Under the pieces are notes generated by a model that was not told where the DNA came from, searched no databases, and saw only the letters and a program-made list of their open reading frames with translations. Shown piece after piece: positions 20,986 to 47,018 of a stretch of DNA of 64,000 bases. The position numbers and the translations under genes are program-made. Numbering within the stretch: the first letter of the stretch is position 1; each line of letters starts with the position of its first letter. Origin of the DNA: Eledone cirrhosa (lineage: Eukaryota); NCBI GenBank assembly GCA_964016885.1, contig OZ024740.1, positions 180,358,001 to 180,422,000 on the forward strand, in the 5' to 3' direction.

Positions 20986-22102
20986 ACTAGCTAGAAAAAT
21001 GCGTACAGCAAAAAAAAGTAATATTGTTGGAACAAACCTTTAAAAATACAGGACAAGGAAGTAAGATAAACCTTTAAAAATACAGGACAAAGAACTAAGA
21101 TAAAACTTTAAAAGAATAGGACAAGGAATATAAATTTTTACAATAATATTAGTGGCAAAATTCAATTGGTAAAAAATTGAGTTTCCATCATTACACCAAT
21201 TACAACTATGATGTTCCGCATGCATCCACTCCAACCATGATCACTTGTCTGTCATCTTTCCCGGTCCAACTCCTCGCGGATGACCCGGCGCAACTCGGAC
21301 TGGGTCGGAGCAGGAACTGGAGGGGGAGAGGGAGGGGTACGGGTCTTGACTCTGGGACGATGACGGCGAGTGACCAAGGTGAATGGGCCCGTGTTCGACT
21401 CGGAATCCTGCTGGTCCTCGATGACACTTTGAGGCACGGTTGACGGTTCCGGACTGGCTTCATGGGCAGTGGTAGAAGGGCAGGTGGATAGGGCAGAGTG
21501 CTTCTTCCTGGGAGAGCACTTGAAGCAGGTGAAGCCGGCGCCGGACTCGTTGAACCACTTCCAGACAGCACTGGGCATGTTGGCGCAGCAATGATGAAAG
21601 TTGAAGCAGGCGACGAGGGGGGAGGAGGTGGAGGCGTTGGTGCAGGAGCAACAGACTGCTGATTTGGGAGTCATTGTAGCTGGGGGATGCAGGCGCTGAG
21701 GGGGCTCGAGTAGAAGGGAAGAACAGAAATGAACCATGATGACTTTTCCTACATTTTTCCTGGCCCACTTCCTCATGAACCAATGAACCAGTTGGTACAA
21801 CTCGGACTTGGAGGAGGAACACAAGACAGGGATCAATTTCATTGTATTGATATTTCTCATTAAGTAATTTCGTGTTACTCAAATAAATCACTTTTATTTG
21901 ATCAATTATCTATTTTTCCAATAAAATGTTTGCCACTAATATTATTGTAAAAATTTATATTCCTTGTCCTATTCTTTTAAAGTTTTATCTTAGTTCTTTG
22001 TCCTGTATTTTTAAAGGTTTATCTTACTTCCTTGTCCTGTATTTTTAAAGGTTTGTTCCAACAATATTACTTTTTTTTGCTGTACGCATTTTTCTAGCTA
22101 GT
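20986..22102. repeat. 174-bp apparently perfect inverted repeat (20986-21159 / 21929-22102) with internal about 30-bp subrepeats
   Basis: actagctagaaaaatgcgtacagc..agtggcaaa / tttgccact..gctgtacgcatttttctagctagt. Confidence 0.95.
21252..21578 (-). CDS. Possible 108-aa ORF with a BED-zinc-finger-like N-terminus (transposon-derived or captured fragment)
   Basis: gccaacATG context; MPSAVWKWFNESGAGFTCFKC resembles S-x-VW-x-(F/Y)F...CxxC; the His ligand pair is not clearly present; GC-rich island. Confidence 0.4.
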   Translation of the reverse strand: MPSAVWKWFNESGAGFTCFKCSPRKKHSALSTCPSTTAHEASPEPSTVPQSVIEDQQDSESNTGPFTLVTRRHRPRVKTRTPPSPPPVPAPTQSELRRVIREELDRER

Positions 22103-22569
22103 TCCCTATTTTTCAAGGCAATGCAAACAACAACTACTTAATTAAATAGTTATTACTTTAGTTACTTCTATCAAAAAATCCCAAAAATGATGTTAATGAA
22201 AACTATAGGTGAAAGTGAAGCTATTCTTTTGTGACCTCTTAGTTACTTGTACCAATTTTGAATTTAATTCAAGCTACAGTGTCAGCCTGTGCATTGGAGT
22301 CACAGAAATAAGTTGAGATATTTTATCTAATTGGTACAAGCATCCACTCCACATGGCGGGGACATAGGTCAGATCGTGGAGCACTCACCTATCTTAAAAA
22401 TATTAACTTATGATAAATAAGAGTCATTTAAGAAAATACAATTTTTTTAAATTAGTAGGTGAGCATTAACAACTGAATCTAAATGGAGCAAATTTGCACC
22501 ATTTGCATTTAGTTGAAAATAACATTTTAATTAAACATGACAAATTCTAATGCAATAGAAGGCAAATAT

Positions 22570-22840
22570 CAATTTTCACATGCAAATTTTTTTGGGATTT
22601 TTTTCACGCGCGCCATTTTTGGTCGATTTTTTGTCAATTTTTCACATGCAAATTTTTTTGGGTTTTTTTGATTTTTTTTCACGCGCGCCATTTTTGTCGA
22701 TTTTTTGTCAATTTTTCACATGATAATTTTTTTTTGGATTTTTGGATTTTCTTCACGCACGCCATTTTTGTCGATTTTTTGTCAATTTTTCACATGATAA
22801 TTTTTTTTGGATTTTTGTATTTTCTTCACGCGCTTTTTGG
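22570..22840. repeat. About 70-bp tandem repeat, 3-4 copies (codes K/R/E-rich peptide repeats on the - strand)
   Basis: ttcacgcgcgccatttttgtcgattttttgtcaatttttcacatg recurs. Confidence 0.85.
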
Positions 22841-23415
22841 TATGCATTATTCATATGTTTTGCTTGTTCTGATTGTCTTTTTTCTTTTATTTCAGCAGCT
22901 TTCCGTTTTTTATACTCCCTATTCCTAATGGCATTTTTTCTCCGTTTTTCATTCTCTTTATGAATTTTTTGATCTTTGGGACATTCGGAAGCACTATCAG
23001 TCTCATTGAATTCAAATTCAGGTCCAGGATTTAATTCAACACAACCGATAATAAGCAATGATAAGATCAGTGCACGTGTTCTATATTTCTGATTGGAAAT
23101 CGGGTAAATTCGTTTATTGGATTTGTAAAAAGCCGCCTGAATGTGAATTTCATCATTCGAATTGCCCGATTGTGGAATTGTTTCATTCGAAATGGAAATA
23201 TTGCATTTTCGCGCCAGGCAAAAAAGTAATAAGCCGATCAAAAAGCCGCGAAACGTATATGGTGACTTTTTTCGAAAGCCGCGAAACGTATGAAGTGACC
23301 TTTTGCGATTTTTTTTGCGACCATTTTGGCGAGACTTTTGCAGGGAAACAAATTTTTCATTTGTAATAGTCAAAATAAATAAGCCGATAAAAAAGCCGAG
23401 AGACGTCATTTTCAT
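22753..23415 (-). CDS. 220-aa ORF: hydrophobic leader, 2A/StopGo-like peptide (GCVELNPG|P at 23046-23020), then K/E/R-rich helical region; probably a truncated 5' end of a transposon polyprotein
   Basis: RTRALILSLLIIGCVELNPGP fits G(D/C)(V/I)ExNPGP preceded by an aliphatic helix; open frame in non-microsatellite DNA. Confidence 0.6.
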   Translation of the reverse strand: MKMTSLGFFIGLFILTITNEKFVSLQKSRQNGRKKNRKRSLHTFRGFRKKSPYTFRGFLIGLLLFCLARKCNISISNETIPQSGNSNDEIHIQAAFYKSNKRIYPISNQKYRTRALILSLLIIGCVELNPGPEFEFNETDSASECPKDQKIHKENEKRRKNAIRNREYKKRKAAEIKEKRQSEQAKHMNNAYQKAREENTKIQKKLSCEKLTKNRQKWRA

Positions 23416-23739
23416 ATGTCAAATGAGCACACTATTCGCACCTATCGCAAATGAGTTCACTACTCGCACCTATCGGTACAAAAAATAGCACAACTATTCA
23501 CAACTATTAGTACAAATCCAAATGATTTTCTGAATTTCTAGTATATCAATCAGCGACTGCTTTGAAAGAGAACAATGCAGTGAGTGATTACTCATTTGAA
23601 TATAAATAGAAGACAACCTCAACTAGTTTGCAACGTGTGACCACTTATCGCGAGATAGGAGAACATAATAGCTCCTAATTAGCTCAATGATTAATGTTTA
23701 CTGCCACATTGTATCAACATTTAAAATTCAAATTCAAAA

Positions 23740-24305
23740 AAATAACCGCAGTCACTGGGGGGGGGGTTCAAATAACCACCGCACCCCGAATAACCGCAGT
23801 CACTAGGGGGGGTTCGAATAAGACCCTCACCCCAAATAACAGCAGTCACTGGGGGAGGGTTCGAATAAGCGCCTCACCCCGAATAATCGCAGTCACTGTG
23901 GGGGGGGGGGTTCGAATAAGCGCCGCACCCCGAATAACCGCAGTCACTGTGGGGGGGGGGGGGGGGGTTCGAATAAGCGCCTCACCCCGAATAATCGCAG
24001 TCACTGGGGGAGGGTTCGAATAAGCGCCGCACCCCGAATAACCGCAGTCACTGGGGGGAGGGTTCGAATAAGCGCCGCACCCCGAATAATCGCAGTCACT
24101 GGGGGGAGGGTTCGAATAAGCGCCGCACCCCGAATAACCGCAGTCACTGGGGGGAGGGTTCGAATAAGCGCCGCACCCCGAATAATCGCAGTCACTGGGG
24201 GGAGGGTTCGAATAAGCGGGGGGGGGGGTTCGAATAAGCGTCTCACCCCGAATAATCGCAGTCACTGGGGGAGGGTTCGAATAAGCGCCGCACCCCGAAT
24301 AACCC
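23740..24305. repeat. About 39-40 bp GC-rich minisatellite, roughly 14 units
   Basis: gaataa(c/t)cgcagtcactggggggagggttcgaataagcgccgcacccc. Confidence 0.95.
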
Positions 24306-25891
24306 CTTATCCTCCTCTGACCGGTCCCAAGAGATGCATCAAATGCACAGAGCGTCACCCTTACTCACTCACTTACTCACTTGAACACAGTTTTTTTCAG
24401 CAAACTTTGATCATAACTTTTTTTGTGCTGAACGAAATTTCGAGATTTTTAGCTTAAGAGATGTGCAATGATTTACTCTCCATGCTCATATAACTTTCAT
24501 GTGATTTTGATAATCGGAAGACATTCTAATAATGCTGTAAAGAGACGATTGCCAACGAAATCACTAAGACAACAATATTACTAAACCGACTACCGTCGGT
24601 TTAGGATATAAAGAATTTGACGGCACTAGCAAAACGTATATATACTATATATATATATATAGAAATGATTTCTACAAAACTGAAAGACTTAGACGTATAT
24701 GAATTCATACGAATAAGACAGTTCTATTCCTGTAGAAAATAGTTCTATATATGATAAAGATGTTTGTACTCTACTCACATATTGAGGTCCTTCCTTCGTC
24801 TGTGGACACCTCCTGATGTCCAAAGATGATAGGGTGGTGCATGTGTGTGTGTGCGTGTGTTTATGGGTGTGTTTAAACGGATTTTTTAAAGAAATTGATA
24901 TTCGTAACGTTATTTTACTAAAAGGATATGACCCTGAGCAGTCACCTCTTTTATTCTTGATTTGTTTTGCAGCTATATTCAAGATGCAATTCCATCCTTT
25001 CCCCATAGTCTACGTTAGTGTATAAATAAGTGTCGCATTTTACGAAGATCGCTCCACAGTATAGGGTGGAAAATGTTAATATGACGAATATGCTATTCAT
25101 CTATAATCTATAATTCAATCCTGCCACAGAAGAACTTGACTAGAAATGAATTCAGGCAAGTTTACTTGTCCTTAATTCACTATGCAAAAGCATTTTATTT
25201 TGTAGATAATTTATGAACCGATAGGTGTAGGTGATCTACTGATTAATCTTATAACCATTTATCAACCTTATTGGATTAATCATATTTGTATTGACAATAT
25301 TAGGGTAAACATACATAAATAAATGCAGAATTTCGTATCCAGATTCATATATGCAAGACTATTTTAAAAACCTAAGTAAGGATCAGGCAAGTCTTTGCCT
25401 CCATACATCCCATTAAAATATAAAAACTTCCAAGTTTATTTAGAATCATCAGCAAACAAATTCACAAGTAACTATCTCTTAAAAATGTAAATAACCATTC
25501 CACATTTCATCGCAATTATTATACAGCACATTTTCCAATAATCAAATGATGCGAGATTCTATATTGGTGAAGGCTTCCGAAAACAAACATAAGTAGACAG
25601 TTTATGTTTATATGAGACGGCAAAAGTTAGTTTCATGTGCCAGCTTGCCAATTTTTTGGCAAACTAGACAAGATGGGATTATTGGATCTGTCACCAAGGA
25701 AATTAATTGGAATATGATACAATATATATTCAGAAACTGCAACGTATCTAGCGGTAATTAGAAAGAATATACATAGAATATATGTTCACACGCAAACAGA
25801 CGTTGATGGATCTCGATACACATAGAAACAGTATCTTACTAGCACTCTCATAAACATACAGTTATCCGGAATAAACATTAGGTTTATACTA

Positions 25892-35644: not shown

Positions 35645-38600
35645 AGGAAATGTGGTAAGGAACCAGGTGGGCCATAACTTGTTGTCAACTACCCCCCGAA
35701 ATCCCCCGCACCTGACCGCTCACTTCTCAGTAGAGACCTGTCGAGCGGACGTCGAGTGATGTGTGCGACGCACCAAGCTACAGACACACATCTACAACAC
35801 ACCACCGGCTCCGGACGCCCCAAAGCGATTTCTCGCCCTGGGCCGACGACCATCTTTTTGGACGCCGGCACCCGGGAAATTTAGCACCCTGGACGTGTTG
35901 GTTGATGCCTGCCGTAGCGCAGTAAATCGCTTCGACTTCCGCCACCGCTCAAAACGGAATAACATCTCACGGGTCGAACTCCTCGCTCTCCACTCCCACC
36001 ATAGCCGCGACAACATCGTCAAACCGGCGACAATGGAGGCGCTGTGGTGGTGTGGTGCGCCGACCTCTACACGGCAGAGACCCTCAGGCAGCTCCACCAA
36101 CCCCTCTTCTAGAGTGCCATACCTTCGGACCCCAACCCGCTCTACCAACAACAAGTTTCCTCCTCGTCACCTCCTCTCTCCTACCGTCTCCCACCTCATC
36201 GTCCGCACCCCCACCATCTACTTCCTCCCCAAATCCACAAACCCGACAACCCCGGCCACCCAACGTTTCCGCTTGCAACTGCCCCACCAAAGTCATCTCC
36301 GCCTTTCTCGACTCCTTTCTCCGCGTCTTCTGCTCCATTTGCCCTACCCTCCAGTTCACCACCTCTATCTCCACAACCCACGCCCATTTCTTGGACATCT
36401 CCGTCGCCATCGACAACTTCACCTCCGCCTTCTTCAAACCCACCGAATCCCACTTCCACCTCGACTTCACCTCCTCCCACCCAACACACGCCAAACACTC
36501 CATTCCCTACTCCCAACTCCGCCGGATCAACCGCCTCTGCAGCCGAGAAGCTAACTTCGAGACTGAGGCCCTGTCTCTGATCAGCCATTTCATCCGGAGA
36601 GGTTATTGTCCATGCTACGCTCACCCGTGCTCACACAGTTCGCCGCTCCACCGCCCTCACCCCATGCCCCCGCGCACCAACCCACTGTCCCGACTTCCTC
36701 CTCACTTATCCCCCTCCACTCACCCCTCCACCGAACCATCCTCCGCCCCTTCCGACGCCTGCAGTCCGACCTATGTTCCCATTCCCCCCCCCCTTCGCAA
36801 CCTCCTCGTCCGCAGCTCCCTACTCCCTAACAGCCTCCCCGGTTCCCTTTCCTGCTCCAAACACCGCTGCCACACCTGCCCCCTAATTACCAGCACCACC
36901 ACCTTTCAGGGTCCCAACAGCAACTCTCTCACTGTCCAGCATGCCTTCCTCCAACCTCCTCCAACCTCGTCTATGGATTTCGCTGCACCGAGTGCAGCGC
37001 AAACTATGTCGGACAGACCGGTCGTTTCCTCACGGAGCAGCTCGGAGATATTCGTCTCGGCGGGAGTTTGCCCATCTCCCGCCACTTTGGTTCCCCTGGA
37101 CACTCCGCCAACAACATCACCGCCTGTGGCTTGATTGAATGCCAAGAGACCACCGCAAGGAGTTAAGACCAAACAACACACCATGTTCACCTTACAGACA
37201 TACACACCACTTGCCTGAACCCCCAATCATCTTCTTCCTTTAACCTTCGACCGTTCCCCTCCACCTGCCCTACACACACCGTCTCCTCTATTCCTGTCAA
37301 CCCACTCCTTGGTTCACCACTAACAACCCCACCCTTACCGCTATCACACACCCATCCACACCCACAACACGCACACACACACCAGTACATATATACACTT
37401 ACTCACAATATTCACACACACTAATACCACCCCTAACACGCACCCACATATCCACATCCGACCACCCCACCACTAATAATACTAAACATCCCCCCAACCA
37501 ATCTGCCCCCTCACCACGCACACACGAACACACACCAGCATACATACACTCACCCACACCCACGTACACACCTATACACAAATCACTCTACTATTAACCC
37601 CTCCCCACACACCCGTATTAGACCCCCCAACCACTAATAATACTAACACCCACCTTACCACAAACACCCGCACTCACACCCAAACACGTACACACACACA
37701 CACCAGTATATTACACTCAGTCATAATGTACCCAACACCTTCTCTCTCCACCCCGACTACGCCACCCTGTCCCTCAATTGTTCACACTAATCCACCTTCT
37801 CTCCTGCCCACCGCACCTGCGCAGACACATATACACTTGCCACACAGACATACAGGCCAAACCTGCCAACTACCACTCGCCTGTCTCTCACCCTATTAAC
37901 TGCTATCTCCTCTCTCCCGCGTCCTTCGCCCTGCTTTCTCCACCCCCTGCCCCGTACTTCTTGACCACTTCCTGTTGCGCGCGCGCCCCACAACTTTCTA
38001 CTTCCTTTCACCAATTCCACGGATCCTACACCACTGGTCACATGCTCTGGACATCCACCCTATTATACCCGGATTTGTTCACCATCTGTCCACACACTCA
38101 CCGGGAAAACGTTCAGGAACACACGCACACACAAAGGCTTACAATGTTTTGGCACACACGCAACCATACATTCCTACGTACCCACACCACACACAAACAC
38201 GTGCGTATCCTCACATACACCTACACGGCATCCGGGCACCGCATGCCCCCTCTCAAACATCCTTTCCGAAACCCCTCCTTACACACGCACACACACACTG
38301 ACTTACACCCCGCCGCATGTCCACACTGGTTTTCCTATTACCCGAATATTGAACCACGTTCCTCCCCAAACTCTCGCATTCACATCCACACATACACACA
38401 CACACGTACACCTAAACACACACATACACACACACCACTTCCCGCCCTCCCCGCTCGGAAACCCTGTTTCCTTCTCCCTTCTCCCCTTCCATCCAACCAT
38501 CACCAGCTCTACACGCCTCACACCCTTTCACCAATATTTTTTATTTTAATTTTGTTTCCTTCTTTTTAATTCCCCCCCTTTTTAATGTCTTTCCACCACT

Positions 38601-44584: not shown

Positions 44585-46495
44585 ATGGAAAAATTTGAAC
44601 AGGAACAAAACAGAGAGTCAGTACAACGAATGTTTATTAATTTCACGCTCTGGAGAGTGGGGTGGTGGTGGGGAACGACGTTTCGGGCATAAGCCCTTCC
44701 TCAGGTGAGAAGTGTGTGGGAACAGAGTTCAAAGGGTGTGTAGGAGAGTGGTGGAGAGACATATAGCGAAAGGAAACGGTGCGAATGAAATGAAAAATAA
44801 AAATAAAAATAAAAATAAAGCATGATCAAAATACAAGGAATGAAATAAAATTAAATATAAAAGCATGATCAAAATAATCTGAAATTAAAAAGGGGGTAAA
44901 ACAGGTGGTGGAAGGGTGTGGGGTGTGTAGGAGTGGTGGCGGGTGGAGTGGGAGAGGGAGACAGGGTGTCCGAGCGGGGAGGGTTGAAGGTGGTGTGTGT
45001 GTGTGTATGTGAAAGTAAGGGTTGGGGGAAGAACGGGGTTGCATGTTCAGGAAGAGGTGTGTGCGGGGGGGGGGGTTGTAGGTCGGAGTGTCTGTGCGTG
45101 TGTGCATAGAGGGGTCGGGGGAGAGAGTAATCAGGAGGCTGAGGGTGTAAATATGTGGTGGAAAGCACGTGTGTGTGGGTTTTAAGCGTGTTGTGGGTGT
45201 AGGTGGCGTGTGGAGAAAAAAACATTTGTTGGATGTGTGTGTGGGTGAGTTATATAGGTGATCCCGTAAGAGGATGGTTGAAAAGTGGGTAAAATCCTAT
45301 GATGTTTAGTGGATTCCGTGGTGGTCAAGTTCCGCATACGAGTATTTCATGAAGAGATGGTCGGAAGAGGAGAGATGTGGGGTGCGCGCGCAACAGGAAG
45401 TGGTCAAGCAGTGGGAGTGCTGTGTGTCTGTTTGTGCTGGGAGGTGGTCAGAGGGCATAGCAGCAGACGGTGGAATGGTAAAGGGGCGAGGATGGGTAGG
45501 TGTGAAAGTTGGAGTGAGGAGGGTGTGTGTGTGTATTAGTAGAGGTGTTAGTGGGATGAGTGAGTGTGGAGCGAGGGTGTGGGTGGAGCGGGGAGAGAAG
45601 GGTGTGTGTAGTACTATGGAGTGAGTGTGGTGTACTGGTGTGTGTGTAGTTTGATGAAGGGGGTGTTAGTGGGTTTTAGTATACGGGAGGTGGGGAAGTG
45701 TTGAATGCAGGTGTGAGTAGGGTGTGTGGGTACGTGTGCGTGTGATAAGGAGGGGGAGGAGGAAAAGAAGGGAGGGATGTTAGTATGTTAGTTGGGGAAG
45801 GGTGGTCGGATGAGGGGTGGAGTGGATGTGTTAGTATTGTTAGTTTTGGGGTGGGCGGTGAAAAGGAGGGGTGTGTTAGTGGTGTTAGTGGGAGATAAGT
45901 GTGGGGGAGGGGGTGGTCGAAGGCTAAAGGAATAAGGGTGGGGAGTTCAGGCCAGGGGGAGTGTGGGTCTGTAAGATGAAGATAGTTCTTTGTTTGACTC
46001 TAAGGCGATTGGCGGGTGTTCCCTGGCATTGGAGTAGGCCACAGACTGTGAGATGGCGTGCGGAATGTCCAGGGCCACCAAAGTGGCGGGCGATGGGGGA
46101 ACTACCACCGAGACGAATATCCCGGAGGTGCTCAGTGAATTGGTCCGCCAGGCGACGTCCCGTCTGTCCGACATAAGTCCGTAGACTAGGTTGGAGGAGG
46201 TGCAGCGGAAGGCATGCCGTACAGAGAGAGAGTGGCCGTTGGGACCCTGGAAGGTGGTGGTGTTGGTGATGTGGGGACAGGTGTTGCAGCGGGGCCTAGA
46301 ACAGGAAAGGAACCGGGGGGGGGGAACATAGCGTGGGTTGGGGGTAGGGAGCTGTGGACGAGGAGGGTGCGGAGATTGCGTGTGCATTTGAAGGAGGGGA
46401 GTGGTGGGGTTGGGAATATGTGGGAGGTGGAGGGGTCGGACTGGAGGCGTCGGATGGTGCGGTGGCGGGGTAAGGTGGAGGGGTAGTAGGTAATG
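44585..46495 (-). mobile_element. Second copy of the GC-rich Neptune-type PLE, 5'-truncated at (TA)n; HHR motif at about 44674-44707
   Basis: [39 protein letters not shown]; rc CTGAGGA-agggcttatgccc-GAAA-cg-TC. Confidence 0.9.
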
Positions 46496-46509
46496 GGTAT
46501 ATACATATA

Positions 46510-46633
<124 letters not shown>

Positions 46634-46694
46634 GTAATTCCATCGGAAAAGTCCAGGAAAAAAGAGTGCTCTATGTAAGCAACAGAGCTTAATT

Positions 46695-47018
46695 ATTATT
46701 ATTATGTAATAAACAACATAAGGCAATTATTCCATTTACCAGTGGTTTCTTAAAAGCAAAAGGTTTTGCTTTCAATCCTCAGAATGAAAAATCCTGGTTT
46801 GTTTATTGAATATGGATTCTAAAAACAAAAATGCAATCTATATGAAAGTGAGGTTCCAGCCTCACTTTCATATAGATTGCATTTTTGTTTTTGGAATCCA
46901 TATTCAATAAACAAACCAGGATTTTTCATTCTGAGGATTGAAAGCAAAATCTTTTGCTTTTAAGAAACCACTGGTAAATGGAATAATTGCCTTATGTTGT
47001 TTATTACATAATAATAAT
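46695..47018. repeat. Near-perfect palindrome (about 159-bp arms, about 6-nt spacer) carrying two divergent intact HHRs
   Basis: Centre gaaagtgagg-ttccag-cctcactttc; HHR on + at 46925-46982 and its mirror on -. Confidence 0.95.
46925..46982 (+). ncRNA. Type I hammerhead ribozyme (intact)
   Basis: ttcatt-CTGAGGA-ttgaaagcaaaa-tc-ttttgcttttaa-GAAA-ccactgg-TA-aatgga. Confidence 0.85.

Follow-up and report, generated by a model that had tools for sequence, protein, structure and literature searches.

A 2A-like (StopGo) peptide held by selection was found near the start of the transposase of an HLE2 rolling-circle transposon from Eledone cirrhosa. The reading that we favour, with a probability of about 0.6, is that this peptide makes the ribosome skip a Gly-Pro bond, so that a leader is shed and a Rep-helicase (RepHel) with an N-terminal proline is made, probably at lower yield. 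As a recoding element 2A is known; what appears new is the class of element that carries it, a rolling-circle DNA transposon, for which we could find no earlier report. Outside viruses, the known carriers of 2A/StopGo are non-LTR retrotransposons and, in a few cases, host genes (PMC3708506, PMC13405545, PMC4981915; these and the other papers are cited here for their accessible parts). The initial annotation of this DNA knew of no such peptide described for Helitrons or Helentrons, and this held in the full texts searched, outside Repbase Reports, theses and subscription journals, where an earlier mention is possible: none joined 2A-like, StopGo or NPGP with Helitron, and the listed papers on Helentrons and polyproteins do not, judged by title and opening of the abstract, deal with 2A. 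The word 'Helitron' is absent from the main texts of PMC12338488, PMC12846837, PMC13405545, PMC3708506 and 10.64898/2026.09.24.754024, 'NPGP' is absent from the Helitron-VTD paper PMC9741609, and the supplements of PMC12338488 gave no Helitron or PIF1 entry.

The window (the whole stretch of DNA analysed, 64,000 nucleotides) contains an internally deleted copy of the element (Table 1). Its 220-aa minus-strand frame is uninterrupted, and RTRALILSLLIIGCVELNPGP occupies residues 112-132. The 2A-like peptide, the two hydrophobic stretches upstream and the K/E/R-rich region downstream that had been noted earlier were all present. The earlier figure of about 120 aa before the peptide is near the truth for the core Gly, which 123 residues precede, and too high for the peptide as quoted, which 111 precede. 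What had been taken for 70-bp coding repeats are the 74-bp 3' non-coding repeats of the element, which in the long copies lie about 7.5 kb downstream, after the RepHel ORF, and are reached here via the deletion; residues 196-220 are read-through into these repeats. About 7.5 kb was lost, with 4 shared bases at the junction, and the loose ends fell at the same place in runs X1-X4. The true coding repeats, 16-aa charged units, are found in the long copy and are missing from the window's copy. A Pfam search of the 220-aa ORF returned no domain. After skipping, the predicted product of this copy would be an 89-aa fragment without catalytic domain, and therefore the motif would be carried passively here. 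Elsewhere in the window, long GC-skewed low-complexity open frames (35926-38569 and 45000-46700) gave no Pfam matches and are likely simple-sequence repeats.

Table 1. Position, strand and basis of the features of the transposon copy and of its open reading frame in the window.
Feature	Position	Strand	Basis or remark
Non-autonomous copy, 3,620 bp, of an HLE2 rolling-circle transposon of 11.2 kb; internally deleted	20987..24606	-	98.7-99.4% identity to both ends of the long copies on C13 and C10
5' end: TC, then hairpin with 4-nt loop	24581..24606	-	Identical in all subfamily-A ends compared
Left 12-bp sub-terminal inverted repeat	24571..24582	-	Reverse complement of 21017-21028
48-bp tandem array within the 5' non-coding part	23741..24287	.	
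220-aa ORF: truncated RepHel N-terminus (residues 1-195) and 25 read-through residues	22753..23415	-	Comparison with long copies
Subfamily-A-specific leader extension, residues 1-66, with both hydrophobic stretches	23218..23415	-	35-nt direct repeat, 150 nt apart
Leader common to subfamilies A and B, residues 67-102	23110..23217	-	CTG at start in A, ATG in B
2A-like peptide, 30 codons, terminal GCVELNPG/P	23020..23109	-	A versus B: 11 synonymous, 1 replacement
Predicted skip site, Gly131/Pro132	23025-23023 / 23022-23020	-	Within the 2A-like peptide
K/E/R-rich start of the predicted RepHel product, residues 133-195	22831..23019	-	In frame into DUF6570-Rep-PIF1 in the long copy L063
74-bp 3' non-coding tandem repeats	22589..22833	.	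Deletion junction ~22830
3' cassette between a 174-190-bp inverted duplication of the element's terminus; 108-aa ORF inside (21578-21252)	20986..22102	.	
3' end: right 12-bp sub-terminal inverted repeat, then CTAG, then target T	20987..21028	-	Copy comparison

A 301-nt probe over the motif gave at least 40 scored matches (of 189 candidates) in the 3.0-Gb genome, all copy counts being lower bounds: at least 35 copies of a subfamily A, 97-100% identical over the whole probe and including the window's copy, and at least five of a subfamily B, 81-84% identical. By translated search, one locus (L063, contig C13) was found with an open frame of 1,904 codons, in an element of about 11.2 kb. Its 1,903-aa ORF shares the first 195 residues of the window ORF, with the same leader and motif in frame, and reads leader, motif, 16-aa charged repeats, DUF6570, Helitron_like_N, REP and PIF1. 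The Pfam matches were DUF6570 (PF20209, E 9e-18), Helitron_like_N (PF14214, 1.5e-26), PF23343 and PIF1 (PF05970, 3e-20), and an intact HUH motif and Walker A and B motifs were visible. A second in-frame part, a 485-aa ORF, holds the Pif1 C-terminus and a UCH peptidase. The rolling-circle host proposed by the initial annotation is thereby confirmed, and extension of the copies recovered the expected HUH Rep and PIF1; the APE domain sought with them was not recovered. Pfam detected neither APE nor RT domains in the two ORFs of the long copy, PF03372 being absent and the C-terminal domain being UCH. Since the long copy has no APE or RT, the LINE (APE-RT) linkage that would have counted against the proposal is not seen, and the link to RepHel holds. 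A LINE origin of the ORF was ruled out by the Rep-PIF1-UCH content of the long copy.

In the assembly, each of the two long A copies has one in-frame stop within the helicase, between the 1,903-aa and the 485-aa part. This stop lies within a 6-nt insertion that is absent from subfamily B; the long copy on C10 has a frameshift besides. A 2,615-nt contig of another sample has a sense codon in place of the stop, which makes it probable that one uninterrupted ORF of about 2,410 aa occurs in the population. An intron between the two ORFs was ruled out, the parts being in frame across one stop and aligning without gaps to a sister HLE2 family of the same genome; this reading is also countered by the subfamily B copies and by the sense codon of the other sample.

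The selective regime of the peptide was read from the 30 codons ending in NPGP, compared between subfamily A (L063) and 11 B copies. Typically 11 synonymous changes and one replacement were counted (pS 0.51, pN 0.015, Fisher p 9e-8), whereas the 21 leader codons just upstream had one synonymous and eight replacement changes (pS 0.08, pN 0.16). The contrast was significant (p 0.0004), and it rests on one subfamily split, all A-B comparisons being mutually non-independent. Further up the leader, 14 codons had 2.5 synonymous and 6.5 replacement changes, and the K/R block after the motif had 4.5 and 16.5; for scale, the Rep region had 111 and 68 (pS 0.40, pN 0.065). Because of the 11/1 versus 1/8 proportions, the 2A-like peptide is under purifying selection, more constrained than Rep itself, and the leader before it looks free. 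A comparison across copies had been put forward earlier as a check on the motif, and it came out in its favour: the motif is held by selection between the two subfamilies. The core is unchanged in 11 of 14 motif-bearing B loci, the others reading NPGS, GCDE and EFNPGP; one further B copy is frameshifted inside the motif and one is without the region. Residue-shuffling of 164 long RepHel proteins gave 0.005 core-motif proteins per shuffle and, as the peptide is in addition under purifying selection, the core motif is not a product of chance.

The selected stretch of 30 codons is about as long as the ribosomal exit tunnel. Positions -19 to -10 of the window peptide read TRALILSLLI, hydrophobic and Leu-rich (4 Leu) and presumably helical. 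Conservation of a tunnel-length stretch at the peptide level, as in class A 2A, was thus found. The class A core GD(V/I)ExNPGP was not: the peptide reads GCVELNPGP, with Cys at the position where 43 of the 46 motif matches among homologues have Asp. The initial annotation had given G(D/C) as the standard consensus, which was mistaken, Cys fitting neither the canonical GDxExNPGP nor the non-canonical GxExNPGP core (PMC13405545).

We consider a functional leader, be it a membrane or secreted protein or a dual-targeting signal like the 2A signals of sea-urchin NLRs, distinctly improbable. Hydrophobic stretches do occur in subfamily A, with one in part of B, the 2A helix is hydrophobic itself, and N-terminal 2A-like peptides act as signal sequences in the sea-urchin case (PMC4981915). 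However, both stretches are the product of a recent local DNA duplication in subfamily A, which extends the frame and which in B is absent or half present, and in many B copies they lie upstream of the first in-frame ATG. In the leader shared by A and B, pN is at or above pS. The B leaders start at an ATG 61 or 75 codons before Glu, a position that reads CTG in A. The stretches are about 13 residues long, and their Kyte-Doolittle maxima over 19-residue windows (1.4-1.65) are marginal for transmembrane helices. The membrane or secreted leader claimed earlier is therefore unsupported as a conserved feature, both stretches being made by the A-specific duplication and the changes in the shared leader being mostly replacements. 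Some leaders elsewhere are constrained, because 13 of 45 homologous leaders have the N-terminal pattern M-x-[YWH]R-x-x-[IV]G, which also speaks for a functional leader. In the window family, the upstream product being unconstrained, the benefit must lie in the stall or skip event, as dose control or N-terminus, and not in making two proteins.

Published assays of look-alike peptides are divided in outcome. Those of PMC13405545 were run on 20-mers in human cells, shorter than the stretch of about 30 codons under selection here, and the accessible part of its table was compared for part of the 45 homologue motifs. The exact Helentron 20-mers of two homologues (P0059 and P0087) are classed there as 'nonskipping only', and a peptide of Acropora XP_044182051.1 as 'falloff only'; of the six relatives shown for the Acropora peptide, five are non-skipping (PMC13405545). 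We take the Acropora protein to be a Helentron fragment, with structure matches to PIF1 helicase and VTD. Complete C[VI]Ex[NH]PGP peptides skip in two of three cases, WLKVITALLIIRCIELNPGP among them, and the third falls off; of the LLIIG peptides (n=11), five skip, two fall off, three are non-skipping with reduced protein and one is inactive (PMC13405545). The Leu count of the window peptide at -19 to -10 is within the range tied there to reduced protein. Retrotransposon-associated 2A-like peptides mostly reduce protein (59% of ORF2p and 70% of ORF1p peptides), and Leu-rich helices drive the reduction (PMC13405545). For P2A and F2A, saturation mutagenesis left no D12 substitution at the activity threshold, and the conserved Asp, replaced by Cys here, contacts the ribosome (10.64898/2026.09.24.754024). 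Recent large 2A surveys include Helentron-derived peptides, filed as 'ATP-dependent DNA helicase' or as unnamed proteins. A coral protein listed in PMC13405545, XP_015766939.1 (supplement file 4, row 122), joins the leader and 2A of Helentron type to an SCP/ectin-like domain, possibly a Helentron 2A cassette donated to a host gene.

These data bear on an alternative that we judge unlikely, namely that the peptide is a stall helix which throttles transposase output through stalling, drop-off or degradation, with little or no productive skipping. In its favour are the lowered protein abundance that Leu-rich helices bring about in most tested retrotransposon 2A-like peptides, the outcome of the three traced Helentron-derived 20-mers (two non-skipping, one falloff) and the Cys in place of Asp. 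Against it, NPGP is intact under selection, the motif coincides exactly with the N-terminal edge of the homologous protein, a placement that pure attenuation would not require, and the nearest natural look-alike skips (PMC13405545).

The distribution of the motif was examined among HLE2 proteins. A search with the DUF6570-Rep region of the family itself gave 47 proteins, one of which (P0035, 26% identical) has the 2A core. A search seeded with P0035 gave 256 proteins, with the core in 45 of the 120 matches listed, always upstream of Rep. In the union of both, 45 of 164 homologues carry it (44 with a stricter pattern), a proportion inflated by the motif-bearing seed, and all 46 motif matches precede Rep motif II. 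With the window family's own sequence as query, the core occurred once in the best 150 cluster representatives, and once in the 51 of these whose part ahead of Rep motif II is 700 residues or longer. It was found in no frame of five metagenome loci read in six frames, at least one of them cut at the contig start. Nor was it found in any frame of the stretches fetched from the sister HLE2 family of E. cirrhosa, which is 55-62% identical in Rep and has single ORFs of 2,230-2,245 aa. On these counts (1/47, 1/150, none of the five metagenome loci, no sister family member) 2A as a general HLE2 trait was ruled out, and the wider group can do without the motif. The sister family (loci L083-L085; C3:72.98 Mb, C5:5.37 Mb and C14:27.66 Mb) has many open frames of 2,134-2,245 codons that read DUF6570-Rep-PIF1-UCH. 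It was probably active recently, without 2A, and two families of one genome, with and without the motif, form a natural control.

In a Rep tree of 158 rows (17 of 175 were left out, having no usable Rep window), the motif appears in three places. One is the window family; another is the branch with OTU and endonuclease, where 11 of 14 rows carry it; the third is a VTD branch with records from Hydractinia, Clytia, Acropora and further cnidarians. A single clade of 2A-bearing RepHels was rejected by an AU test (p 2e-5) on 28 rows chosen after the first tree had been viewed. The arrangement points to repeated gain of 2A-like motifs ahead of the HLE2 Rep. Motif presence takes a minimum of 22 changes on the tree, from which gains and losses are not countable because truncated gene calls hide some carriers. 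One VTD-branch RepHel (P0093) carries a pair of 2A-like motifs in tandem, the first with its end at residue 37 and the second at 106, and other 2A-bearing relatives, P0149 for instance, have a C-terminal APE endonuclease.

In the VTD-bearing relatives the motif adjoins the first domain, and 17 of the 37 motif-free VTD-start matches have 16 residues or fewer before that point. Motif-free bivalve proteins start with MPK[RK]K, and the OTU-branch products after skipping would start with PR[QT]KK. From these VTD-branch starts and bivalve and OTU N-termini, NPG/P may be read as standing in for the start Met. Tentatively, and at slightly under even odds, we propose that animal HLE2 elements adopted StopGo at least three times independently (UCH family, OTU+endonuclease and cnidarian VTD), each time with the skip site at the place of the relatives' start Met, and with NPG/P as a regulated substitute for initiation that sets dose.

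The genome also contains 14 canonical GD[VI]ExNPGP matches (L133-L146; control 0), each followed by a Cys-rich, PHD-like finger, as judged by eye. A finger of this kind after 2A has been described for CR1/L2-type LINEs (PMC3708506). The 14 loci belong to at least two decayed LINE-type families with 2A. Could the window motif be a passively captured 5' piece of a LINE, or an unrelated hydrophobic or protease-cut segment, without recoding role? Helitrons capture gene fragments (PMC11417382), LINE-type motifs are at hand in the same genome and the distribution is patchy. Yet the one replacement against 11 synonymous changes is incompatible with neutral carriage, the genome's LINE-type motifs differ from the window motif in sequence and context, and three separate HLE2 branches, rejected as a single clade, have the motif at an equivalent place. 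We therefore hold passive capture to be very improbable. No LINE donor of the window motif was seen in the same genome. The cnidarian leader, searched among shorter proteins, gave seven matches; Helentron domains occur in three of them and LINE domains in none. An ESM Atlas search gave no usable match.

To map the ends of the element, distinct flanks were compared, 24 on the left and 20 on the right. AT precedes CC in all of the former, and in all of the latter the end is directly followed by T. The right 12-bp repeat is about 30 nt inside the 3' end, and the terminus is CTAG, or CTGG in most B copies. In subfamily B one stem pair of the 5' hairpin has changed from C-G to G-C, a compensatory change that preserves the hairpin. 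One copy is inserted in a satellite, whose empty units fit insertion of TC...CTAG between A and T without duplication, the T being assignable to either end; for two other copies, no usable empty site was found. Among the A copies examined, one (L031) has the 3' cassette in inverted orientation; in B copies the inverted terminus is present, but nothing matches the cassette's 108-aa ORF. This ORF is GC-rich, without Pfam match, and its start, W-x-W-F ... C-x-x-C, presumably recalls a BED finger. Two A copies (L006/L007, C15:42.866-42.870 Mb) are joined tail to tail within the inverted terminal duplication, possibly by template switching or recombination at the repeat. At six loci (L016, L024, L026, L027, L029 and L032) an extra 5' terminus lies 400-850 nt upstream of a full copy, sometimes with similar flanks, which suggests short 5' duplications or captured flank.

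Under the favoured reading, that of a selected peptide which promotes skipping, translation would start in the leader, and the Leu/Ile helix would stall the ribosome from within the exit tunnel. Some ribosomes would then skip the Gly-Pro bond and continue at Pro, giving RepHel with a Pro N-terminus and the basic segment behind it; others would drop off, leaving a discarded leader, so that transposase dose would be capped by a translational gate. Lowered downstream protein via 2A has been proposed for LINE ORF2p (PMC3708506). With a selected 2A-like peptide at the head of a DNA transposase, the mechanism reaches a second class of mobile element, and its presence in HLE2 implies a cassette that moves between unrelated elements. 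The family offers a clean test of what eukaryotic 2A peptides serve, and its Cys variant is informative about how strictly Asp is required. If the proposal of repeated adoption is true, HLE2 elements would be the first class II transposons known with ribosomal skipping, and the window family would add a naturally selected Cys-for-Asp variant of 2A.

Among known systems, the element is closest to HLE2 (Helentron/Helitron2), whose markers are DUF6570 upstream of Rep and UCH, with short sub-terminal inverted repeats of 12-16 nt (PMC11417382). It shares a RepHel with HUH Rep (Helitron_like_N) and PIF1, DUF6570 upstream of Rep, UCH and the 12-bp sub-terminal inverted repeats; DUF6570 is absent from both outgroup Helitrons scanned. 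In the Rep phylogeny the family stands apart from HLE1 and groups with VTD/OTU/EN Helentron proteins, away from DUF6570-less Helitrons; HLE1 labels in this tree, which is without Repbase references, were assigned from absent DUF6570 and present STPRs. It differs from HLE2 as described in the accessible part of PMC11417382 in having no endonuclease, a hairpin at the 5' end of the coding strand instead of a 3' stem-loop, TC...CTRR ends, a target between A and T and not between T and T, and an N-terminal 2A-like peptide that is outside the domains listed there. With UCH in place of the C-terminal APE endonuclease, it is not a Helentron in the strict sense. HLE1-like TC...CTRR ends and an A/T target thus occur here on an HLE2 transposase with a 5' hairpin. 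HLE2-reverse elements (FoHeli3-5) and proto-Helentrons share the 5' stem-loop ahead of the left repeat and the HLE2 transposase, and CTAG is found in the proto-Helentron (PMC11417382, PMC5148889). Those are described from Fusarium and Phytophthora, whereas ours is from an animal and has TC at its 5' end.

The nearest counterpart of the peptide is the 2A of APE-type non-LTR ORF2p (L1Tc, Ingi, CR1, L2 and Crack; PMC3708506), where a Leu-rich helix and ExNPG/P also precede the first enzymatic part, 40-80 aa from the N-terminus, and are proposed to reduce the downstream protein. Here, in contrast, the host is a class II rolling-circle element with HUH Rep and PIF1 and no RT/APE, and Cys replaces Asp. 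Class A viral StopGo/2A peptides (F2A, P2A and T2A; PMC12338488, PMC12846837) likewise have a hydrophobic helix followed by G-x-V-E-x-N-P-G/P, but with Asp where Cys stands here, and they part two functional viral proteins, whereas the present peptide follows a short unconstrained leader. The sea-urchin NLR signals are also N-terminal 2A-like peptides on a cellular-type eukaryotic ORF (PMC4981915); they are signal peptides of 26 aa at the very N-terminus, whereas the peptide described here lies 66-131 residues in, behind a leader without conserved signal.
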